Shown here: piece by piece, positions 13,978 through 54,978 of the stretch
How the letters are laid out: every line of letters begins with the position of its first letter
Numbering within the stretch: position 1 is the first letter of the stretch
Source: Candidatus Nomurabacteria bacterium RIFCSPHIGHO2_01_FULL_36_23
GTDB lineage: Bacteria > Patescibacteriota > Minisyncoccia > Phycocordibacterales > UBA9973
Assembly: GCA_001786745.1 (NCBI GenBank)
Contig: MFTF01000018.1
Location: 23,577-87,576, forward strand
Length of the DNA: 64,000 bases
Direction of reading: 5' to 3'
Program-made: the position numbers and the translations under genes
Notes under the pieces: generated by a model
Told to the model about the DNA's origin: nothing
The model's input: only the letters and a program-made list of their open reading frames with translations
The model's database searches: none

Positions 13978-14682
13978 ATGGTCAAAGGAAATAAACGAGG
14001 CAAACTCATAGTTATAGACGGCACGGATGGGAGTGGAAAGGCGACCCAGACCGAACTTCTAGTGAAGGCTCTGAAGAATGAAGGGCGGAAAGTTAAAATT
14101 ATTGATTTTCCTGAATATTACGCTAATTTTTTCGGAAAATTCATCGGGCACTGTCTTTCTGAACAGTATTATAACTTTGTAAAAGTACATCCGAAGATTG
14201 CTTCTATACTTTATGCGGCGGACCGCCTTGAGTCAAAAGATAAAATTAAAAAATGGTTAAAAAACGGCTATATCGTTGTTGCCAATAGGTATGCGAGCGC
14301 CAATCAAATTCACCAAGGCGGAAAAATTGTAAATACAAAAAAGAGGGAAGCATTTATCAGATGGCTGGCAGAAATGGAATACAAAGTTTTTAAAATTCCG
14401 AAGCCAGATGTCGTGTTTTACTTAAGTGTGCCTATTCCGATTGTGTTAAAATTAATTACCGAGCGGAATAAAAATAAAAATAGAAATTATTTGGGCAAGA
14501 AAAAAGATGTGCATGAGAAAGATGTAAAATTTCTAGAAAATTCTCGCCAAAGCGCGCTCTGGCTCACCAAGACACAAAAAGGTTGGATTAAAATTGAATG
14601 TGTAAAAAACGGGAAGCTTGATACTCGTGAAAATATTCATAATAAAATTTATGAAAAAATTAAAAAAATCATCAAAAAATAA
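13978..14682 (+). CDS. tmk: Thymidylate (dTMP) kinase-like P-loop kinase
   Basis: P-loop LIVIDGTDGSGKATQ and a DR(Y/L)-type motif YAADRLES are present. Confidence 0.65.
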   Translation: MVKGNKRGKLIVIDGTDGSGKATQTELLVKALKNEGRKVKIIDFPEYYANFFGKFIGHCLSEQYYNFVKVHPKIASILYAADRLESKDKIKKWLKNGYIVVANRYASANQIHQGGKIVNTKKREAFIRWLAEMEYKVFKIPKPDVVFYLSVPIPIVLKLITERNKNKNRNYLGKKKDVHEKDVKFLENSRQSALWLTKTQKGWIKIECVKNGKLDTRENIHNKIYEKIKKIIKK

Positions 14683-15238
14683 AAAACCCGTAGTTATTTT
14701 TATTTATGGACAAATTGCAGTAGGGAAGCTTACTGTAGCAAAAATTTTAAGTAAAAAACTTGGATATAAGTTAACGCACAACCATTCATTAAATGATTTT
14801 GTTGATGAAGTATTTACTCGAGGTATGAATGCTCATAATTCAATAATTGAAAAAATAAGATATGACTTGTTAGAAAATGCAGTTAAAGCAAAAATTAATT
14901 TTGTCACTACTCATTGCTATGCACATAATTTTGTTTCTACCACTGGGCTTTCAGATTCTAAATATGTTGAAACATTAGAGAAAAAACTTACAAAATTGGG
15001 TGCAGGATTTTATCCTATTCAGCTTAAAGCTACTGATGAGGAATTATTGCGTAGAGTAAATGCGGATTCTCGCAAAGCATTTAAAAAATTAAAAGACAAA
15101 AAAATTATGAGAGAGTTAACACTCCAACACGATTGGCAAACTTCTCCCAAATTAAAAAATAATCTTATAATTGACAATACTAATCTTTCTCCCAAAAAAG
15201 TTGCACAAATGATTATTAAACATTTCAAACTGAACTAA
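14618..15238 (+). CDS. P-loop NTPase or kinase-like protein with a deviant Walker A
   Basis: Motif IYGQIAVGKLTVAKIL is GxxxxGK followed by L instead of S/T. The likely start is the internal Met at 14651. It overlaps the tmk 3' end. Confidence 0.4.
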   Translation: MILVKIFIIKFMKKLKKSSKNKKPVVIFIYGQIAVGKLTVAKILSKKLGYKLTHNHSLNDFVDEVFTRGMNAHNSIIEKIRYDLLENAVKAKINFVTTHCYAHNFVSTTGLSDSKYVETLEKKLTKLGAGFYPIQLKATDEELLRRVNADSRKAFKKLKDKKIMRELTLQHDWQTSPKLKNNLIIDNTNLSPKKVAQMIIKHFKLN

Positions 15239-15248
15239 AAAACCTATT

Positions 15249-15282
15249 TAGCATTAATAAGCGGTCGCACACTATTGCTAAA
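15249..15282. repeat. 34-nt palindrome-containing direct repeat, copy A (tagcattaataagcggtcgcacactattgctaaa); abuts the stop codon of the 15283-15846 gene
   Basis: 32/34 identical to 15857-15890. It contains the outer inverted repeat TAGCATTA/TAATGCTA. Confidence 0.85.
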
Positions 15283-15846
15283 CTAGCATAAGTTAAATTT
15301 CTTCATTAAATGCAGTTCATTGTCTATTTTATCAGCAAGAACGAATCGCACATACCTCCTGGCATTATAAAGCTCCAAAATAAATTCAATTTCATTATCG
15401 CAAGGATAAGGGAAAACCAATACAGATTTTTGAAGTTCAATGAGACCTATTTCTCGAAAATGAAAACGCAAAGAGTCACGTAACCTTTTTAATTTCTCAG
15501 GAATATCAAACATCACTATACGCCATTTCTTGTCCCATTTTGTCGGTTTTTTAATCCCCATTTTATCAATGTTAAATTTAAGAGCTTTTTGTTTTCCTTC
15601 TTTGTTTAAAATAAGAATAGTTGTTCCGTCTTTGTGATATTGTTCTTTAACTAAATGAGAAGTATATAAAGAATTGATGGCTCTCTGTAATGCTTGACGA
15701 TTTTCTTTCTCCCATTCTTTTGGTATTTGTTTCAAAATCCACAGCTGTTTCCTGGCTGATTTAGTTAGGCCAAGTGCAAGACCGGCAAGTAAAAGTAAAA
15801 GCACTTTCCTTTTTAGATTTCCTATTCTTGGCATGTTGTGTCCCAT
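15283..15846 (-). CDS. Hypothetical DNA-binding protein, family member 1: N-terminal winged-helix-like region plus C-terminal Cas2/VapD-like motif
   Basis: C-terminal motif WRIVMFDIPEKLKRLRDSLRFHFREIGLIELQKSVLVFPYP...RYVRFVLAD is shared with ORFs at 23442 and 28481. The gene is bracketed by 34-nt repeats. Confidence 0.6.
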   Translation of the reverse strand: MGHNMPRIGNLKRKVLLLLLAGLALGLTKSARKQLWILKQIPKEWEKENRQALQRAINSLYTSHLVKEQYHKDGTTILILNKEGKQKALKFNIDKMGIKKPTKWDKKWRIVMFDIPEKLKRLRDSLRFHFREIGLIELQKSVLVFPYPCDNEIEFILELYNARRYVRFVLADKIDNELHLMKKFNLC

Positions 15847-15856
15847 CTGCTTATTA

Positions 15857-15890
15857 TAGCATTAATAAGCGGTCGCATACTAATGCTAAA
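15857..15890. repeat. 34-nt palindrome-containing direct repeat, copy B (tagcattaataagcggtcgcatactaatgctaaa); 10 nt upstream of the start codon of the 15283-15846 gene
   Basis: Direct repeat of 15249-15282. Perfect 8-bp inverted termini with a 16-nt spacer. Confidence 0.85.
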
Positions 15891-15918
15891 TTGGTTTTTG
15901 CGTGGAAAAGATATATAA

Positions 15919-16434
15919 TTGAATAACAATATGAAAATTCCCATTGTTGATGAACAAGATAATTTTTTATATTATAAAGATCCCAAAGAACGTGATCCGC
16001 GCAAGGAAATTACGCGGGGCTCTGTTCTATGGGTTGTGAATGAAAGAGGAAAAATATTGGTGGCTAAACGTTCAAAAAACAAAGAACACTTCCCGAATAT
16101 TTGGGGACCTTCAGTTGCTGGGTCCCTTGAAGAAAATGAATCTTATAGGGACAATCTCATCAAGGAGGCAAAAGAAGAGATAGGGGTTAATTTAGATACA
16201 ATTATATTAGGCTCTAAAATAAGAGAATCCGATGATCACGAATATTTTAGTCAATACTTTTTTACTAAAATTTCTTCAAATACAAAATTTACTCTTCAAG
16301 AATCAGAAGTTGATGAAGTACACTGGGTTTCCCTAAAACAATTAAAAAATTGGTATCGTAAAAATCCAGAAGAATTTCTGCCCACTTTTAGCGGAAGTTT
16401 AAAAATTATTGAAAATTATGAAAATCAGAGTTAA
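15919..16434 (+). CDS. Nudix hydrolase (IDI/MutT-like)
   Basis: Nudix box GSLEENESYRDNLIKEAKEEIGV. Confidence 0.75.
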   Translation: MNNNMKIPIVDEQDNFLYYKDPKERDPRKEITRGSVLWVVNERGKILVAKRSKNKEHFPNIWGPSVAGSLEENESYRDNLIKEAKEEIGVNLDTIILGSKIRESDDHEYFSQYFFTKISSNTKFTLQESEVDEVHWVSLKQLKNWYRKNPEEFLPTFSGSLKIIENYENQS

Positions 16435-16840
16435 AAAATTAAATAAAAATGCAAAATTGCCGAAATACCATCACCCAGGGGATATAGGGATGGATTTGTA
16501 TGCGATGGAGACAATCACCGTAAAACCTGGTGAGCATCATCGTTTTTGGCATGGGTTTGCTCTTGAGTTTCCAGAGGGCTATGGAGGGATTATAATGGAT
16601 AAGGGGAGCATTTCTAAGGCAGGTCTGCACCATATGGGTGGAGTTTATGATGCGGGCTATAGGGGCGAATACAATACACTTTTAGTAAACTTATCCGATA
16701 AGCCGTATGTTTTTGAAGAAGGGGACAAAGTCTCCCAGCTCATCATAATGCCCGTAGTAATTGGAGAGTTGGAAGAAACTGATACATTAAAAGAATCTGC
16801 CCGAGGAGAAGGAAAATTTGGGAGCACTGGCAAAAAATAA
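16409..16840 (+). CDS. dut: dUTP diphosphatase
   Basis: Motifs KLPKYHHPGDIGMDLYA, GVYDAGYRGE and GKFGSTG are present. Confidence 0.85.
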   Translation: MKIMKIRVKKLNKNAKLPKYHHPGDIGMDLYAMETITVKPGEHHRFWHGFALEFPEGYGGIIMDKGSISKAGLHHMGGVYDAGYRGEYNTLLVNLSDKPYVFEEGDKVSQLIIMPVVIGELEETDTLKESARGEGKFGSTGKK

Positions 16841-18579
16841 TGCAAGACAAAATAAAAAATTTAATAAAAAATGCTCTTAAAAATCTCGGGATTGAAGGGG
16901 TAGATTTTGTTGTAAAGCATTCAGAAGATTTGAAAAACGGGGATTACTCTACAAATGTGGCTATGGTTTGCGCCAAGAAGTTAAAAAATAATCCCAAAGA
17001 GCTTGCAGAAGAAATTACTAAAGAATTGTCAAGGGGCATCCTTGACATAATAGAAAAAATAGAAACACAAGCTGGTTTTATTAATTTCTACTTATCTCGC
17101 AAATTTTTTGCCGGAAGTATTGAAGAGATTTTAAACAATAAAAATTTTGGACAAAATAAACTTTTTTCTGGCAAGAAAATTATGGTTGAGTACACTCAAC
17201 CGAATCCATTCAAGCCTTTTCATATCGGACATTTAATGAGTAACGCCATTGGTGAGTCGATTTCGAGAATTATCGAATTTTCTGGTGCAGAAATTATTCG
17301 TGCCAACTATCAAGGAGACATAGGGCTACATATTGCTAAAGCTATTTACGGACTTTTAAAAAATGAAAAATTACAAAACAAAACAATTTCTAATACTTTA
17401 CAGTCAGAAAATATTGGGCGGGCTTACTTCGGGGGCGCAGAGGCATATGAGAACAATACTAAAGCGAAAGAAGAAATAGATGTAATAAATAAAAAAATTT
17501 ATGATAAGAGTGATGAAAAAATAAATGAAATATATGACTGGGGTTTCAAAGTAACGATGGAAGCTTTTGAAGATCTGTATAAAATGCTCGGTACGAAATT
17601 CGATTTTTACTTTTTGGAAAGCCAAATGGTGGATACTGGCAGAGAGATTGTTAATGCGAATATCGGCAAAATTTTTGAGAAGTCAGATGGCACAATTGTC
17701 TTTAAAGCCGAAAAACATGATCCTAAATTGCACACTAGGGTTTTTATAACTTCTGAGAATTTGCCCACTTATGAGACGAAAGAACTTGGTTTAACTGAAG
17801 AGAAATTTAAAAGTTATCCCAATATGAATTTATCCATCGTCGTCACCGCAAATGAACAGGCGGGTTATATGCGTGTTGTCGCGAAAGCCATATCTCTGAT
17901 TCATCCAGAATACACAGACAAAATGAAACATATTACACACGGCATGATGCGCCTCGCCCATGGGGCTACGGCCGAGGGTTTTACAGATGGGAAGATGAGC
18001 TCCAGAAAAGGGAATGTGGTGACCGGTGAAACTCTTTTGAGTGAAGTCCGTGATAGCATTTTAGAAAAAATGACTGATCGAGATTTTTCCAATATTGAGC
18101 GAGAAAAAATTGCAACGGATGTTGGCGTGTCAGCAATAAAATATTCAGTACTTAGACAAGCTACTGGCGGAGACATTATTTATAATTTTGAAAAATCAAT
18201 TTCATTTGAGGGCGATTCTGGACCATATCTTCAGTATTCCTATGCTCGGGCTAATTCAATTATAGAGAAAGCGAAAAAAGAAAATATCTTGCCAGATCTG
18301 CATCCTCAAGCTTTGCTAAAAGAAATTTTTGAAGTGGAAAAATTATTGTATAGATTTCCAGAAGTTGTTCTGCGTTCTGCATCCGAATATGAACCACATT
18401 ATATTGCAAATTACCTTATAGAACTTGCGCGGGCTTTTAATAGTTTCTATGGCAACACTGTTATTGTGGATCAAAAAGATAAAACTTCACCCCACAAAGT
18501 TGCTCTTACTTTTGCTTTTACTTTCGTAATGAAAAAAGGTCTCTGCCTACTTGGCATCGAGGCGCCGGAGAAAATGTAA
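16840..18579 (+). CDS. argS: Arginyl-tRNA synthetase
   Basis: N-terminal Arg-tRNA-binding domain, HIGH region PNPFKPFHIGHLMSNAIG, and a C-terminal DALR-type anticodon domain. Confidence 0.9.
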   Translation: MQDKIKNLIKNALKNLGIEGVDFVVKHSEDLKNGDYSTNVAMVCAKKLKNNPKELAEEITKELSRGILDIIEKIETQAGFINFYLSRKFFAGSIEEILNNKNFGQNKLFSGKKIMVEYTQPNPFKPFHIGHLMSNAIGESISRIIEFSGAEIIRANYQGDIGLHIAKAIYGLLKNEKLQNKTISNTLQSENIGRAYFGGAEAYENNTKAKEEIDVINKKIYDKSDEKINEIYDWGFKVTMEAFEDLYKMLGTKFDFYFLESQMVDTGREIVNANIGKIFEKSDGTIVFKAEKHDPKLHTRVFITSENLPTYETKELGLTEEKFKSYPNMNLSIVVTANEQAGYMRVVAKAISLIHPEYTDKMKHITHGMMRLAHGATAEGFTDGKMSSRKGNVVTGETLLSEVRDSILEKMTDRDFSNIEREKIATDVGVSAIKYSVLRQATGGDIIYNFEKSISFEGDSGPYLQYSYARANSIIEKAKKENILPDLHPQALLKEIFEVEKLLYRFPEVVLRSASEYEPHYIANYLIELARAFNSFYGNTVIVDQKDKTSPHKVALTFAFTFVMKKGLCLLGIEAPEKM

Positions 18580-18611
18580 AAATATATATTTTATGTTAAA
18601 ATCAGCCAATA

Positions 18612-21600
18612 ATGATTGAAAACGAAAAGAATAAGAAATCTGATATGGCGTTTCGCGAGGAGCGGGTTTTGGAATTCTGGCGGGAAAATAAAATTTTTGA
18701 GAAATCACTAGAAAAAGAATCACCGAAAGGGGAATTTATTTTTTACGATGGCCCAGCCACCGCAAATGCCATTCCGCCCCTTCACTCGCTAGTGCCGCGT
18801 GTTTTCAAAGACGCTATTCCTCGTTATAAAACAATGCGTGGCTATCATGTCCGTCGCAAAGTTGGTTGGGATACTCATGGCTTGCCGGTGGAACTGCAAA
18901 TAGAAAAAAAACTTGGTTTAAAATCCAAAAAAGAAATTGAAGAATATGGAATCGCAGCTTTCAATAAGCTTTGCAAAGACAGCGTATGGGAATTTATTGG
19001 AGCGTGGAATAAGTTTACTGCTCGGAGCGGTTACTGGATAGATTTTAAAAATCCATACATTACTTACGAGAATCCATATATTGAATCCATTTGGAATATT
19101 GTAAAAAAAATAAATGATCAAGGACTTTTATACAAAGACTATAGAGTAGTACCCTGGTGTCCGCGTTGTGGTACGGTTTTGTCCTCGCATGAGCTTGCGC
19201 AAGGATATGAAGACGTGAAAGATTTGTCGGTTTATATAAAATTTAAAGCAAAAGGGCAAGACAATACTTATATCCTCGCATGGACGACGACACCCTGGAC
19301 ATTACCTGGAAATGTTGCACTTGCGATTGGTGAAAAGATTGAATATGTAAAAATAAAAGTTGGAAATGAAATATTAATTTTAGCTAAAGCGCGACTTCCA
19401 ATACTCACTGATCCATATGAAATTATTGATGAAGTTAAGGGCAAAGATTTGGTTGGTTTAGAATACGAACCACTTTTTCCATATTTAAAAGAACAAATTG
19501 AGCAAAAGGGAGAAAAAACAGACAAAGCATTCAAGGTTTATTCAGCGAATTTTGTAAATACGGAAGAAGGAACCGGGATTGTGCATACCGCCGTTATGTA
19601 TGGTCAAGACGATTTTGAACTTGGCGCAAAAATTGGTCTGCCCAAATATCACCTGGTAAATCCTGAAGGAAAATTTATAAAAGGCACAGGGTTTTTAGAA
19701 GATAGATTTGTCAAAGAAAAAGATGAAAATGGCAAACCTACTTTAGATGTGGATATTATTAAATACCTGACAGACAAAAATCTATTTTTAAAAAAAGAAA
19801 ATTACGAGCATCCGTATCCACATTGCTGGCGTTGCTATACAGCGCTCATATATTATGCGCGCGATTCTTGGTATATCAAAATGTCTGATCCGAAAATTAA
19901 GAAACAATTAATCAGCGAAAATAAAAAAATAAATTGGGAACCAGCGCATATTAGAGATGGTCGTTTCGGCGAATGGCTAAGAGAGATTAAAGATTGGGCA
20001 ATATCCCGCGAACGTTATTGGGGCACGCCCCTACCTGTCTGGATAAATCAAAACGATGAAAAATTAATAATCGGCTCAATTGATGAATTAAGAAAATATT
20101 CCCAAAAATCCGGCAATGAATATTTTGTATTGCGTCACGGAGAAGCGGAAAACATTATCCTTAATATCACTACTTCAAATAAATCCGAATATGACAAGTA
20201 TCATTTGACCGAAAAAGGAAAAAAAGAGGTACTAGCTTCAGCTGGGAATTTAAAAAATAAAAAAATTGACCTAATTATTTCATCTCCCCTTATTCGCACG
20301 AAAGAGACGGCGGAGATCATCGCTGAAGCAATAGGATTTTCCAAAAGTGATGTTATTTATGATGAACGACTTCGCGAGGTGGATACGGGGGATTTTCGCG
20401 ATAGAAAAAACACCGAGTATCACTCTTTCTTTTTTTCACTAGAAGAAAAATTCACCAAAAGACCGCCCAATGGGGAAAATTTGACTGAGCTTCGGCGTCG
20501 AATAATGGAATTTCTCTATGAAACTGAAAAAAAATATCAAGAAAAAAAGATTTTAATTGTATCTCACGAATATGCTGTTTGGATGATGTTTACTGGAACC
20601 TTCGGTTGGAGTAATAAGCAAAGCGCAGAAGAAAAAAGCCATAAAGATGATTTTATTAAAACAGGGGAAGTGCTGGGTTTACCTTTTGTGCCATTACCAC
20701 ATGATGATAATTTTGAACTTGATTTACATCGTCCATACATTGACGATATTGTGCTAGAAAAAAACAATAAAGAATTTTATCGCACAAAAGAAGTGATGGA
20801 TGTTTGGTTTGACTCCGGGACAATGCCTTTTGCGCAAGATCACTATCCTTTTTCCGCCAGAAACGAACTCGCCTCTGGCGGAGACAATCAAAAATCACAA
20901 AAACTTCTTTACCCTGCAGATTTTATCTCTGAAGGAATTGATCAAACTCGGGGGTGGTTTTATACTTTGCACGCCGTTGGAGTGCTTATGGGTCGTGGCA
21001 AGGCGTATAAAAACGTCATCTGTCTGGGGCATTTACTGGATGCTATGGGCAAAAAAATGTCTAAATCTCTCGGCAATATCGTTGATCCGTGGGTAATGAT
21101 GGATAAATATGGCGTGGATACGCTTCGTCTCTGGATGTATTCAATCAATCAACCGGGCGAGTCTAAAAATTTTAATGAAAAAACAGTATCTTTACTGCAT
21201 CAACAAGTTTTCACTCTATTGTATAATGTGCTTGCTTTTTATGAATTATACAGAGATAAAGAATTAGAAAATAATGACAGACCTAAATCAAAAAATATTT
21301 TAGACCAATGGATTTTGGCGCGATTAACCGAATTAATTAGTGAATCCACAAAAAAAATGGAAGATTATAAATTACTTGAGCCGACTAGAGCAATTAGAGA
21401 TTTTATCGGAGATCTCTCCACTTGGTATTTGCGCCGTTCTCGCGAGCGAATTAAAGAGGAGGCAACAAATCCCGAACTAGAGCAAGCTCAATACGGGGCA
21501 AGAGCAACTTTATATTTTGTTCTAAAAAATTTAACAAAAGTTATGGCACCACTAGCACCATTTGCAGCCGAAGATATTTGGTTAAAACTCAAGAATGGCA

Positions 21601-22142
21601 ATGATACAGAGAGTGTCCATCTAACAAAATGGCCCCTCGCTTTCGCTCGGGACCTTCGGTCAAAAGTTTTGAGAAATATGTCAGAAGTTAGGAAAATAGT
21701 TTCACTTGGCTTTGAAGCTCGGCAAAAAGCAAAAATTCAAGTTCGTCAGCCACTGGTCAAACTGGAAGTGAAGAATTTTGATTTAAGTCAAGAATATATT
21801 GAGCTCATAAAAGAAGAACTCAATGTGAAAGAGATAAAACAGAATAAAAATCTTAATAACGATGTTATTCTTGATGTAAATATTACTCCAGAATTGAAAC
21901 AAGAAGGGAGCTATCGCGAGCTTTTGCGGGCGATTCAAAATATGCGCAAAAAGATGGAATTAACGCCAAATGATATAATTTTACTTACTTTGGACACAAA
22001 CAATGAGGGCAAAAAATTGGTCCAAAAATTTAAATCTGACATGAAAAAAGTTGTATTAGCTTCTAAAATAGAATTCGGGGAAAATGACGGTGATGAAGTA
22101 AAAATAGATGAACTGGTGTTTAAGGTTAAAATTGATAAATGA
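18612..22142 (+). CDS. ileS: Isoleucyl-tRNA synthetase with an inserted histidine-phosphatase (PGAM-like) domain
   Basis: IleRS motifs are present: FIFYDGPA...RYKTMRGYHV..GWDTHGLPVE, WCPRCGT, GTGIVHTAVMYGQDDF, DVWFDSG, DQTRGWFY and KMSKS. An extra block of about 180 aa carries VLRHGE...SHE. Confidence 0.85.
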   Translation: MIENEKNKKSDMAFREERVLEFWRENKIFEKSLEKESPKGEFIFYDGPATANAIPPLHSLVPRVFKDAIPRYKTMRGYHVRRKVGWDTHGLPVELQIEKKLGLKSKKEIEEYGIAAFNKLCKDSVWEFIGAWNKFTARSGYWIDFKNPYITYENPYIESIWNIVKKINDQGLLYKDYRVVPWCPRCGTVLSSHELAQGYEDVKDLSVYIKFKAKGQDNTYILAWTTTPWTLPGNVALAIGEKIEYVKIKVGNEILILAKARLPILTDPYEIIDEVKGKDLVGLEYEPLFPYLKEQIEQKGEKTDKAFKVYSANFVNTEEGTGIVHTAVMYGQDDFELGAKIGLPKYHLVNPEGKFIKGTGFLEDRFVKEKDENGKPTLDVDIIKYLTDKNLFLKKENYEHPYPHCWRCYTALIYYARDSWYIKMSDPKIKKQLISENKKINWEPAHIRDGRFGEWLREIKDWAISRERYWGTPLPVWINQNDEKLIIGSIDELRKYSQKSGNEYFVLRHGEAENIILNITTSNKSEYDKYHLTEKGKKEVLASAGNLKNKKIDLIISSPLIRTKETAEIIAEAIGFSKSDVIYDERLREVDTGDFRDRKNTEYHSFFFSLEEKFTKRPPNGENLTELRRRIMEFLYETEKKYQEKKILIVSHEYAVWMMFTGTFGWSNKQSAEEKSHKDDFIKTGEVLGLPFVPLPHDDNFELDLHRPYIDDIVLEKNNKEFYRTKEVMDVWFDSGTMPFAQDHYPFSARNELASGGDNQKSQKLLYPADFISEGIDQTRGWFYTLHAVGVLMGRGKAYKNVICLGHLLDAMGKKMSKSLGNIVDPWVMMDKYGVDTLRLWMYSINQPGESKNFNEKTVSLLHQQVFTLLYNVLAFYELYRDKELENNDRPKSKNILDQWILARLTELISESTKKMEDYKLLEPTRAIRDFIGDLSTWYLRRSRERIKEEATNPELEQAQYGARATLYFVLKNLTKVMAPLAPFAAEDIWLKLKNGNDTESVHLTKWPLAFARDLRSKVLRNMSEVRKIVSLGFEARQKAKIQVRQPLVKLEVKNFDLSQEYIELIKEELNVKEIKQNKNLNNDVILDVNITPELKQEGSYRELLRAIQNMRKKMELTPNDIILLTLDTNNEGKKLVQKFKSDMKKVVLASKIEFGENDGDEVKIDELVFKVKIDK

Positions 22143-22145
22143 AAT

Positions 22146-22745
22146 ATGAAACTAATTCTTTTTGATTTTGATGGGGTGCTGATTGATACCTTTATTATTA
22201 GTTTGAAAATTAGCAGAGAAGTTAATAAAAAAATGTCCCTTAATTTATTCCGTTCTATTTTTAATGGTAATATTTATGATTCATTAAAAAATAATACTAA
22301 AGTAAAGCAACATCCAGAATTTTTTAAACTATATGAAAAACAATCCCGAAAACTTGAAATTCCAAAAAAATTAAAAGATTTAATTTGTAAATTAAGTAAA
22401 AATTATACACTTGCTATCATTTCAGCGACTCCTTCAACGCTCATCGCAACAATTTTAAAACAAGCGAATGTATTTAAGTATTTTTCCGATATATTGGGAG
22501 GCGATATTCACACGAGTAAGGTCGTAAAAAATAAAATGCTTTTAGAAAAATATAAAATTGAACCCAAAGACGCAGTTTTTATTACGGATACTACAGGCGA
22601 TATTCTTGAAGCGCGAGAATGTGGCATAGAATCTATTGCCGTAACCTGGGGTTTTCACGAAAAAGAAACATTGCAAAAGGAGAAACCCTTTAAAATCGTT
22701 AGTACTCCTGAAGATTTAGAAAAAGCCATAGAAGAAATTTTGTGA
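22146..22745 (+). CDS. HAD-superfamily hydrolase
   Basis: Motif I LILFDFDGVLIDT, motif II SATPS, and a C-terminal D..GD. Confidence 0.75.
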   Translation: MKLILFDFDGVLIDTFIISLKISREVNKKMSLNLFRSIFNGNIYDSLKNNTKVKQHPEFFKLYEKQSRKLEIPKKLKDLICKLSKNYTLAIISATPSTLIATILKQANVFKYFSDILGGDIHTSKVVKNKMLLEKYKIEPKDAVFITDTTGDILEARECGIESIAVTWGFHEKETLQKEKPFKIVSTPEDLEKAIEEIL

Positions 22746-22757
22746 TAAAATAGAGTC

Positions 22758-23396
22758 ATGAAAATTAAAAAACTTGGGCATTGTTGCTTGATTATAAAGG
22801 TAAATAGCAAAAGAGTAATGACAGATCCGGGATCTTATACAATTTCTGAACAAGAGATAGAAAAAAATATTGACCTAATTCTTATTACGCATGAACATTC
22901 AGATCATCTCCACGTTGATTCGCTAAAAAATATTTTAGTCAATAATCCTAATGCAATAGTTGTGACAAATAGTGCAGTGGGGAAAATTATAGCCGAAGCC
23001 GGAATTAAATATAAAAAGTTAGAAGATGGTCAATCAGGTGAATTTGCCGGAGTTTTCCTTGAAGCTCACGGAGATAAGCATGCGGAAATTTACGAAGAGT
23101 TTGGACAAGTTCAGAATACAGGATATTTTATAGGTCAAGATTTATTTTATCCCGGTGATGCTTTTACTAATCCAAATAAAAAAGTTGAAGTATTAGCACT
23201 TCCTGTTTTGGCACCGTGGCTTAAAATTAAAGAATCAATAAATTATGCTATTTTATTAAAACCTCACATATGTTTTCCTGTTCATGATTGGAATATTAAA
23301 ATACCCGGCATTGTGCACAAAACTCCAAGTATTGTCTTAGCAGAGCACAACATCAGTTTTAAAGTTTTAGAAATCGGCAAAGAGGAAGAAATTTAA
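22758..23396 (+). CDS. Metallo-beta-lactamase-fold hydrolase
   Basis: Motif LITHEHSDHLH (HxHxDH). Confidence 0.65.
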   Translation: MKIKKLGHCCLIIKVNSKRVMTDPGSYTISEQEIEKNIDLILITHEHSDHLHVDSLKNILVNNPNAIVVTNSAVGKIIAEAGIKYKKLEDGQSGEFAGVFLEAHGDKHAEIYEEFGQVQNTGYFIGQDLFYPGDAFTNPNKKVEVLALPVLAPWLKIKESINYAILLKPHICFPVHDWNIKIPGIVHKTPSIVLAEHNISFKVLEIGKEEEI

Positions 23397-23441: not shown

Positions 23442-23915
23442 ATGGAACTGACAACACTAGATCACTTAATAGCGTTTTTGCTTTCTGCTCGTTCAACGAG
23501 GATATATAGAAAAATATTATGGTCAAGAGTGTATATGAGACAAAAAAACTTAAGCACCGAAGCTTTTCGCCAGCATATTTACCGTTTACATAAAAAGGGA
23601 ATTATTGAAGCAAAAGGTAATAAAGTTTATATTTATCGAGAAAATCTTTTAAAGTTTTCAGTCAAAAGGAATTCAATAATGAAAAACATTTTTCCAGACA
23701 AAACAGAAAAAGTTCTCATATCTTTTGATATACCCGAGAAAAAGAAAAAAATGAGAGATTGGTTACGGAATCAAATAAAGTATTGGGATTTTGAAATGAT
23801 TCACGAAAGTTTATGGCTTGGGTATGGGCCACTACCCAAAGCGTTTAATGATAGATTAAAACATCTTGGTATTTATAAAAATGTTCGGGTATTTAGAGTT
23901 AGAAAAATAGCATAA
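23442..23915 (+). CDS. Hypothetical DNA-binding protein, family member 2 (winged-helix plus C-terminal Cas2/VapD-like motif)
   Basis: N-terminus FRQHIYRLHKKGIIEAKGNKVYIY is wHTH-like. The C-terminus VLISFDIPEKKKKMRDWLRNQIKYWDFEMIHESLWLGYGP...VRVFRV is paralogous to 15283 and 28481. Confidence 0.6.
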   Translation: MELTTLDHLIAFLLSARSTRIYRKILWSRVYMRQKNLSTEAFRQHIYRLHKKGIIEAKGNKVYIYRENLLKFSVKRNSIMKNIFPDKTEKVLISFDIPEKKKKMRDWLRNQIKYWDFEMIHESLWLGYGPLPKAFNDRLKHLGIYKNVRVFRVRKIA

Positions 23916-37612: not shown

Positions 37613-37704
37613 TGGCGGAGCCGGCTGGATTCGAACCAGCGGAGGGGTTTAAAGCCCTCACCTCTTTAGCAAAGAGGCACCTTAGACCGCTCAGACACGG
37701 CTCC
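37613..37704 (-). tRNA. tRNA-Ser (anticodon GCU), type II, CCA encoded
   Basis: Minus-strand fold: acceptor GGAGCCG/CGGCTCC, D-loop GAGCGGTCTAA, anticodon stem CCTCT/AGAGG with loop TTGCTAA, a long variable arm, and T-arm GCTGG-TTCGAAT-CCAGC. Discriminator G plus CCA. Confidence 0.75.
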
Positions 37705-54890: not shown

Positions 54891-54978
54891 TGGCGGAGGG
54901 TAGGAGATTCGGACTCCTGATGGATTTCTCCATACACGCTTTCCAAGCGTGCGCACTAGACCTCTATGCGAACCCTCC
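54891..54978 (-). tRNA. tRNA-Ser (anticodon GGA), type II, CCA encoded; T-loop has C at position 55
   Basis: Minus-strand fold: acceptor GGAGGGT/ACCCTCC, D-stem GCA/TGC with loop TAGAGGTCTAG, anticodon stem CACGC/GCGTG with loop TTGGAAA, variable arm ATGGA-GAAA-TCCAT, T-arm AGGAG-TCCGAAT-CTCCT, then G-CCA. Confidence 0.65.

Follow-up and report, generated by a model that had tools for sequence, protein, structure and literature searches.

The stretch analysed here (the window) is 64,000 nucleotides long, spans positions 23,577 to 87,576 of contig MFTF01000018.1 from Candidatus Nomurabacteria bacterium RIFCSPHIGHO2_01_FULL_36_23, and carries an ileS gene whose product is a type-2 isoleucyl-tRNA synthetase (IleRS) with a histidine-phosphatase domain nested inside it (Table 1). 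The product is identical to GenBank OGI57115.1 (UniRef100_A0A1F6W7J5), a protein from a Candidatus Nomurabacteria metagenome-assembled genome (MAG) that databases name either 'hypothetical protein' or 'isoleucine--tRNA ligase'. As a whole protein it scored 856.7 bits against the NCBIfam ileS equivalog model TIGR00392 (cut-off 621.4), and a Pfam scan identified tRNA-synt_1, Anticodon_1 and the type-2 C-terminal domain DUF5915 together with His_Phos_1. The best solved relative found by phmmer was the IleRS2 of Priestia megaterium (8c8w, E 1.6e-228), and a score of 764.5 bits to this chain versus 306.2 bits to the IleRS1 of S. aureus (1ffy) assigned the protein to type 2. The C-terminal DUF5915 domain was present, without the zinc-binding domain of IleRS1.

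The His_Phos_1 match (PF00300) covered residues 505-670 at E 9.4e-29, with 100.9 bits as compared to a gathering cut-off of 21.7. The first-pass annotation of this DNA, made from the sequence letters, had proposed an IleRS with an inserted PGAM-like histidine phosphatase in a candidate phyla radiation (CPR) organism and had named a His_Phos_1 profile search as the way to check it; the Pfam scan returned that match at high significance and, together with TIGR00392, upholds the proposal. Alignment to 8c8w resolved the boundaries: query residues 6-497 correspond to chain residues 4-478 and query residues 701-1099 to chain residues 484-869, leaving approximately 200 query residues in place of about five in the solved structure. 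The conserved blocks WGTPLPVW (aa 470-477, window 20019..20042) and DVWFDSG (aa 730-736, window 20799..20819), both checked by translation, are separated by 252 residues, in agreement with the figure of about 250 given previously, and the interval 20120..20700 highlighted at that stage corresponds to aa 504-697, that is, to the phosphatase domain itself. In orthologues a zinc knuckle of the form C-x-x-C ... C-x-x-C follows the WGTP(L/I)PVW block, and the insert lies between the two knuckle halves. The same loop in insert-less Patescibacterial IleRSs comprises only 7-12 residues, between ...IGSxEEL... and HRPYID. A yeast IleRS-tRNA paper gives, in its domain description, the order CP core, CP1, CP2 and CP3 (PMC11685878), and from its position after CP2 the knuckle element that hosts the insert is probably CP3.

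Table 1. Coordinates (window numbering) of the nested synthetase gene, its functional elements and its neighbours.
Feature	Position	Strand	Basis
ORF with PaaX central Cas2-like domain	15283..15846	-	PF20803, 7.1e-19
NUDIX hydrolase	15919..16434	+	PF00293, 2.2e-17
dUTPase	16409..16840	+	PF00692, 2e-22
argS, directly upstream of ileS	16840..18579	+	TIGR00456, 384.3 bits
ileS, 1176-aa type-2 IleRS with nested phosphatase	18612..22142	+	ORF translation and profile matches
Degenerate class I signature P-L-H-S, aa 56-59, in place of HIGH/GXHH	18777..18788	+	Alignment and translation
CP1 editing domain, ~aa 198-404, with TTTPWT and GTGIVH...DD motifs kept	19203..19823	+	Match to isolated editing-domain structures 1wk8/1ue0
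WGTPLPVW block and first zinc-knuckle half	20019..20060	+	Alignment and translation
Inserted histidine-phosphatase domain (His_Phos_1, branch 1), aa 498-700	20103..20711	+	PF00300, AF2, Foldseek, alignment breaks
R508-H509-G510: phosphate-binding Arg and nucleophilic His	20133..20141	+	Invariant in 120/120 orthologues
I515, slot of the canonical Asn in RHGxxxxN	20154..20156	+	Asn in 117/120 orthologues
R562, second phosphate-pocket Arg (S-x3-R-T-x-E-T motif)	20295..20297	+	Invariant
E589, putative general acid/base	20376..20378	+	Invariant
H652, second catalytic His (SHE here, SHG in most orthologues)	20565..20567	+	Invariant
Second zinc-knuckle half, degenerate, LEKNNKEFYR	20754..20783	+	Alignment and translation
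KMSKS motif, intact, aa 815-819	21054..21068	+	Translation; K815, M816, S817, K818, S819 invariant
Anticodon-binding domain and type-2 C-terminal domain (DUF5915)	21303..22139	+	PF08264 aa 898-1048; PF19302 aa 1040-1176
HAD-family phosphatase, start 4 nt past the ileS stop	22146..22745	+	PF13419, 2.5e-18
MBL-fold hydrolase	22758..23396	+

Modelled alone with AlphaFold2 (AF2), the insert folded with high confidence (pLDDT 91.4, pTM 0.89), and in a model of the full-length protein it retained a pLDDT of 88-96, with the Rossmann core below 50 and an overall pTM of 0.53. The predicted structure has the alpha/beta fold of the phosphoglycerate mutases (PGM), and Foldseek placed it among small branch-1 phosphatases and mutases at TM-scores of ~0.7-0.75 and 18-28% identity, its neighbours being PspA (4IJ5/4IJ6), S. 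pombe PGM (1FZT), PhoE (1H2E/1EBB), GpgP (4PZ9) and CobC (6E4B). The strength of the PF00300 match combined with this predicted fold rules out a chance motif match. No curated enzyme family claimed the domain. The best NCBIfam phosphatase match, the small archaeal model dPGM_arch, reached 78.9 bits against a cut-off of 225, with lower scores for RNase H/acid phosphatase (NF005567, 68.8 against 326), PspA-type phosphoserine phosphatase (59.9 against 350, with 26-28% identity to 4IJ5/4IJ6), GpmB (57.6 against 261), the dPGM-type model PRK01295 (34.2 against 316) and the phosphohistidine phosphatase SixA (32.7 against 74.5, matching the N-terminal 75 residues alone); the curated CobC model was likewise far below its cut-off. 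The insert is thus a member of branch 1 of the histidine-phosphatase superfamily that stands outside every curated enzyme family. The model for IleRS with a GNAT domain (NF040702) was also rejected for the whole protein, at 308.8 bits against 1999 and with no GNAT in the Pfam scan. No second His_Phos gene was found within the 64-kb window.

Conservation was scored in a MAFFT alignment of the 120 best full-length homologues, which share 60-68% identity. The motifs FVLRHGEAEN (aa 505-514) and ILIVSHEYAVW (aa 647-657) contain the two histidines that had been singled out as catalytic from the RHG and SH(E) signatures, and both, H509 and H652, were found in all 120 orthologues. The other invariant residues of the insert are R508, G510, T533, G536, S558, R562, E589 and R630, and E622 is conserved in 97%. 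The canonical Asn of RHGxxxxN is replaced by I515 in the window protein, although an N stands at position 514. The insert is nonetheless the least conserved region of the protein, with a mean consensus frequency of 0.55 compared to 0.77-0.87 for the IleRS core, and part of it, the flap region between E589 and R630, has been deleted in some orthologues. Because the catalytic residues are invariant while the rest of the insert drifts, selection probably acts on catalysis and beyond the fold alone, and the phosphatase is apparently active, with an intact active site.

The knuckle that flanks the insert has decayed in the window protein. Residues 479, 482 and 717 are Cys in 96 of the 120 orthologues and N, D and K here (20046..20056 and 20760..20762), so that the first half reads INQNDE where 80% of orthologues show C-x-x-C; the loss of these cysteines together with I515 would mark the window protein as a faster-evolving member of the family. 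Taken with the location of the insert at what is normally a structural zinc site, the missing cysteines and the missing Asn raise the possibility that catalysis has been lost and that the domain now braces the structure in place of the zinc knuckle, or senses a ligand and so regulates IleRS. We consider this very unlikely, given that the insert and the cysteines are retained side by side in 80% of orthologues, that the catalytic residues are all invariant in a domain that otherwise drifts, and that free-standing and tandem copies of the phosphatase also keep them.

The synthetase itself carries an unusual class I signature. The canonical motif (HXGH, or GXHH in IleRS2) is replaced by PLHS, in which H58, the third-position His, is invariant in the 120 orthologues and is the sole signature His left. 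The orthologues most often carry GIHH (75), followed by VLHT (29), ALHH (8) and PLHS (3). The fourth-position His is normally a catalytic contact; since it is missing from VLHT (29/120) and PLHS (3/120), it is dispensable or replaced in a subgroup of these enzymes. In the CP1 editing domain W224, T225-T227, G320, G322, H325 and D334 are invariant in the same alignment, and because the KMSKS and editing motifs are intact the window protein has probably retained IleRS function.

PF00300 is present at the same site in all 120 of the best full-length homologues. The insert alone was used to search 1.84 billion cluster representatives (50%-identity clusters) exhaustively with HMMER; 57 matched at E<=1e-30, and 674 reached E<=1e-10. 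Among the best 148 representatives, 105 were fused to a class Ia aminoacyl-tRNA synthetase (aaRS) and 40 were free proteins of <=260 aa. A separate scan of GTDB species genomes, using an alignment of 12 close free-standing proteins, recovered 395 relatives, and 68 of the best 80 loci, which were those examined, had the phosphatase between N-terminal and C-terminal parts of IleRS. The MAGs with fused loci are named as Wildermuth-, Wolfe-, Terry-, Taylor-, Sung-, Colwell-, Yonath-, Jorgensen-, Yanofsky-, Lipton-, Zambryski-, Kaiser- and Nomurabacteria, with others named Paceibacterota and Minisyncoccia. The nested architecture is therefore the norm in Parcubacteria/Paceibacteria and spans hundreds of species, an ancient and clade-wide feature as opposed to a one-off. 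The first-pass description of a fused phosphatase as unusual consequently holds for aaRSs in general and fails within this clade, where it is the rule.

This distribution also disposes of an artefactual or selfish origin. An assembly chimera and a recent horizontal insertion were ruled out by the recording of the identical protein on 10 contigs, by a GC content in the insert (0.361) equal to that of the rest of ileS (0.369), where the reading frame runs unbroken, and by the architecture's presence across the clade. The C-terminal junction, ...PLPH(N/D)-E/D..., superficially resembles the HN motif of inteins, but the junctions (...KSGN/EYF... and ...PHDDN/FELD...) have no Cys, Ser or Thr at +1, and no Hint, intein or endonuclease domain was found by Pfam. 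We regard any such explanation as effectively refuted.

The closest free-standing homologues (P0007, P0005 and P0009) are 39-42% identical to the insert, and each is encoded between argS and an insert-less ileS (957-976 aa), with a gap to ileS of 2-25 nt. The same argS-phosphatase-ileS order was found in a Staskawiczbacteria locus (L009), and at another (L080) the phosphatase gene is 3' of argS with ileS ~1.2 kb further downstream. In the window ileS directly follows argS, with no gene between them. The insert thus corresponds, in fused form, to a separate gene that sister Patescibacteria carry between argS and ileS, which bears out the earlier suggestion that a domain was captured by insertion. 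Crude neighbour-joining trees (with no support values) do not separate the adjacent from the nested forms, whether built on the phosphatase or on the IleRS; in each, for example, a fused locus (L012) clusters with free ones (L001 and L005), which suggests that passage between the adjacent and the nested state has occurred more than once. Fusions of the phosphatase to the N-terminus of IleRS, as expected from loss of the stop codon between adjacent genes, were absent among the 148 representatives.

The phosphatase is also attached to other tRNA enzymes. Two ValRSs (NF004349, 857 and 925 bits; L074 and L075) carry the same family. In L074 (2568..5339) the insert lies between the CxxC halves of a knuckle homologous to the IleRS site, in L075 (4600..7722) about 20 residues later, after DTWFSSGLWTFSTLGWP (...LGWP), and the phosphatase domains of both branch outside the IleRS-linked group in the crude tree. 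In two IleRSs (P0297 and P0319) a second copy occupies a different site, near window aa 880-895, a class Ia synthetase (P0286) has at least two copies, and a ValRS-like fragment (P0240) has four in tandem; in such arrays (2-4 copies) each complete copy retains RH(G/A), S..R, E and H. An ArgRS (P0273) has a C-terminal His_Phos domain, as does a TsaC, or threonylcarbamoyl-AMP synthase (P0235, TIGR00057), in which RHA replaces RHG. At L008 (3520..5540) a more distant free His_Phos gene overlaps the lysS stop by one base. Coupling of the phosphatase to ileS therefore takes three forms: an adjacent gene, a domain nested in the protein, and multiple copies. The multi-domain partners found, IleRS, ValRS, ArgRS and TsaC, are all adenylate-forming tRNA enzymes, and no ribosomal, chaperone or metabolic fusion partner occurred among the 148 best representatives.

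Other guest domains were noted in Patescibacterial IleRSs. In another Patescibacteria MAG (L007, 7066..10515; also L076) a NUDIX domain occupies aa 327-452, in the CP1 region, with a separate NUDIX gene directly upstream and a free His_Phos gene 3' of argS; the two NUDIX sequences share motif-level similarity only and are not close paralogues, which excludes the internal domain as a recent copy of the upstream gene. A subgroup of the fused IleRSs (P0065, P0142, P0146, P0149, P0153, P0156, P0161 and P0174; 1306-1361 aa) additionally contains an HD phosphohydrolase domain (PF01966, with a weak PF13023 match), located inside the C-terminal DUF5915 at ~aa 1140-1300 in the four members scanned with Pfam. 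One truncated protein of 1066 aa (P0294) combines in a single frame an IS200-like Y1 transposase (aa 340-461), a His_Phos domain (aa 680-854) and a GNAT domain (aa 935-1063).

Adenylate-forming tRNA enzymes convert ATP to an adenylate and pyrophosphate (PPi), with AMP released later. The reading we favour, at a probability of roughly 40%, is that the insert is an autonomous and active phosphomonoesterase tied to such enzymes, where it clears a small phosphorylated by-product and forms no part of an editing site. The window protein would be bifunctional, consisting of a working type-2 IleRS and a self-contained phosphatase of ~200 residues (PhoE/PspA-like, branch 1) displayed in a surface loop, and the nested module would have been passed down vertically with ileS across Parcubacteria/Paceibacteria. 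The phosphatase would fold and act independently of its host and would take no part in the activation, transfer or editing of Ile. From what is known of the superfamily, R508, R562 and H652 would bind the terminal phosphate of the substrate, His509 would attack it, and E589 would serve as the acid/base. Because every multi-domain partner makes an adenylate and PPi, and because the attachment points are not conserved, a small soluble by-product is the more plausible substrate; we infer phosphatase activity on a nucleoside phosphate such as AMP, or on PPi. Fusion would then provide co-expression and co-localisation, as opposed to precise positioning, and the tandem arrays and flap deletions are both compatible with an activity of dosage type whose substrate is small.

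The position of the domain also bears on the first-pass proposal of an editing or aminoacyl-adenylate-directed activity, which fared poorly: the same domain is found at non-equivalent positions of IleRS, ValRS, ArgRS and TsaC and in tandem arrays, so a positioned role at the synthetic or editing site is unlikely. Non-equivalent attachment points and a variable copy number favour a hydrolase that acts freely over one more processing point for Ile-AMP or the tRNA 3' end.

Several points weigh against a by-product-clearing phosphatase. Its substrate assignment is a guess, and a literature search turned up no branch-1 histidine phosphatase with pyrophosphatase activity; dephosphorylation of AMP, for its part, would be wasteful for an organism that must salvage nucleotides. 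Low confidence in the Rossmann core limits what the full-length AF2 model can say about where the insert lies relative to the active sites, and the window copy, with I515 and PLHS, may be less active than its relatives. Most of the fusions descend from one or a few insertion events, leaving only ~6-7 independent partner choices, and the ArgRS and IleRS cases could owe their existence to nothing more than the argS-phosphatase-ileS gene order.

A different explanation makes the insert an ordinary enzyme of metabolism (for example a phosphoserine phosphatase, a small mutase of dPGM type or a sugar-phosphate phosphatase) without any functional link to aminoacylation, nested only because its gene was the neighbouring cistron and the knuckle loop tolerates insertions, with fusion merely securing its expression in a reduced genome. 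Its closest solved relatives (PspA, S. pombe PGM, PhoE and GpgP) and its best NCBIfam phosphatase match, the small archaeal dPGM model, would agree with such an origin, as would the lack of a conserved attachment geometry, and the accommodation of unrelated NUDIX, HD, GNAT and IS200-like Y1 domains by Patescibacterial IleRSs suggests a permissive scaffold. We find it somewhat unlikely all the same, on the grounds that every multi-domain partner is an adenylate-forming tRNA enzyme, with LysRS as a direct neighbour, while the best 148 representatives offer no ribosomal, chaperone or metabolic partner. Moreover, the models for specific enzymes, dPGM_arch and PspA among them, lie far below their cut-offs, and the ERHYG motif typical of dPGM was absent from the alignments by inspection.

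The nature of most partners points in another direction again. IleRS, ValRS, ArgRS and LysRS all bind the tRNA acceptor end. Patescibacterial IleRSs also house HD and NUDIX domains, and domains of these two kinds hydrolyse 3'-(pyro)phosphorylated nucleotides in other systems. The HD domain of the bacterial CCA-adding enzyme has 2',3'-cyclic phosphodiesterase and phosphatase activity, and small alarmone hydrolases reverse the pyrophosphorylation of tRNA by toxSAS toxins. The insert might accordingly repair tRNA 3' ends damaged by ribotoxins or toxSAS, clearing the CCA end of a 3'-phosphate, or of the outermost phosphate where a 3'-pyrophosphate has been left, and so restoring a chargeable substrate. 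TsaC, however, does not bind the tRNA 3' end, the scattered sites (CP3, the loop at aa ~885 and the C-terminus) and the tandem arrays are unlike a positioned 3'-end station, and a site borne on IleRS would serve only tRNAIle unless it acted in trans; for these reasons we judge repair to be quite unlikely. There is also a wider reading that takes in both kinds of substrate, in which class I aaRSs and other adenylate-forming tRNA enzymes of Patescibacteria scaffold phosphohydrolase modules (here a histidine phosphatase, elsewhere NUDIX or HD) for synthetase-coupled housekeeping, either as a hydrolase of PPi or nucleotide by-products that replaces or supplements pyrophosphatase, or as a tRNA 3'-end repair activity, with a direct effect on aminoacylation flux; this we hold to be doubtful.

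Among characterised proteins, the host synthetase most resembles P. megaterium IleRS2 (8C8W; Brkic et al. 2023, 10.1101/2023.01.31.526100), with which it is collinear save for the insert, sharing DUF5915 and the CP1 editing motifs. Bacterial IleRSs of this type are eukaryote-like and resistant to mupirocin. The GXHH signature, linked to mupirocin hyper-resistance in IleRS2 in the account of the same authors (Brkic et al. 2023, 10.1101/2023.01.31.526100), is carried by most of the CPR orthologues (GIHH in 75 of 120). Unlike 8C8W, the window protein has a 200-aa phosphatase in the knuckle loop, PLHS as its signature and no knuckle cysteines. The insert shares with B. stearothermophilus PhoE/YhfR (1H2E, 1EBB) and Hydrogenobacter PspA (4IJ5) its fold (Foldseek E ~1e-13, TM-score 0.71-0.75), a size of ~190-210 aa and the catalytic R-H-G, R, E and H; it differs in that identity is only 20-28%, in scoring below every curated family cut-off, and in being nested in, or in relatives encoded beside, an aaRS.

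The NF040702 family (ileS_w_GNAT) is likewise an IleRS with an additional small-molecule enzyme domain, and GNAT and phosphatase occur together in P0294, but the window protein has no GNAT and its guest differs in fold and chemistry. In RNase H/acid phosphatases of the Rv2228c type (NF005567) a CobC-like histidine-phosphatase domain is joined to a nucleic-acid enzyme, in that case end to end with RNase H, as opposed to nested within an aaRS. The HD domain of the CCA-adding enzyme is similarly a phosphatase-type module attached to an enzyme of the tRNA 3' end; the HD fold, unlike the insert, is metal-dependent and terminally fused, and contact of the insert with tRNA is only conjectural. A literature search covering IleRS with histidine phosphatase, His_Phos_1 or Nudix, and aaRS insertions in CPR, yielded no account of an aaRS with a phosphatase inserted into it. 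The sequences of the nested IleRS family are public and have precomputed Pfam annotations. An aaRS with an accessory enzyme domain is thus known in kind, while the phosphatase-nested architecture is unreported in the literature found.

Bacterial aaRSs are usually thought of as having a fixed domain plan, with domain accretion deemed mainly a eukaryotic trait. In this large bacterial radiation the catalytic domain of an essential synthetase contains another catalytic centre that is apparently active, and because of this nested architecture NCBI names many of the proteins 'class I tRNA ligase family protein' or 'hypothetical protein'. The recurrence of the phosphatase with ileS, ValRS, ArgRS and TsaC is a strong genomic signal of a link to adenylate-forming tRNA enzymes. 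If the substrate is PPi or a nucleotide, the domain would bear on the drive and balance of aminoacylation in ultra-small symbiotic bacteria; if it is a tRNA end, it would constitute a new route of tRNA repair.

The ileS gene is part of a packed run (13978..23396) comprising thymidylate kinase (Tmk), a kinase-like ORF, the PaaX/Cas2-like ORF, NUDIX, dUTPase, argS, ileS with its nested phosphatase, HAD and MBL genes, several of whose stops and starts overlap or abut. The NUDIX and dUTPase genes overlap and argS begins right at the dUTPase stop, so that the two appear to belong to the same tightly packed transcription unit as argS. The embedding of aaRS genes among nucleotide house-cleaning genes fits, weakly, a nucleotide-related role for the insert. 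No family I pyrophosphatase signature was found within the window, a result that concerns the window only and is silent on the whole genome. The HAD gene downstream of ileS gave weak matches to phosphoglycolate phosphatase and to PpaX, a pyrophosphatase of HAD type, which scored 46.8-77.5 bits and in no case reached the cut-off. The PaaX/Cas2-like ORF lies on the opposite strand amid an otherwise co-directional cluster. The only tRNA genes in the window are two for tRNA-Ser, with anticodons GCT (37613..37704) and GGA (54891..54978), both on the reverse strand.

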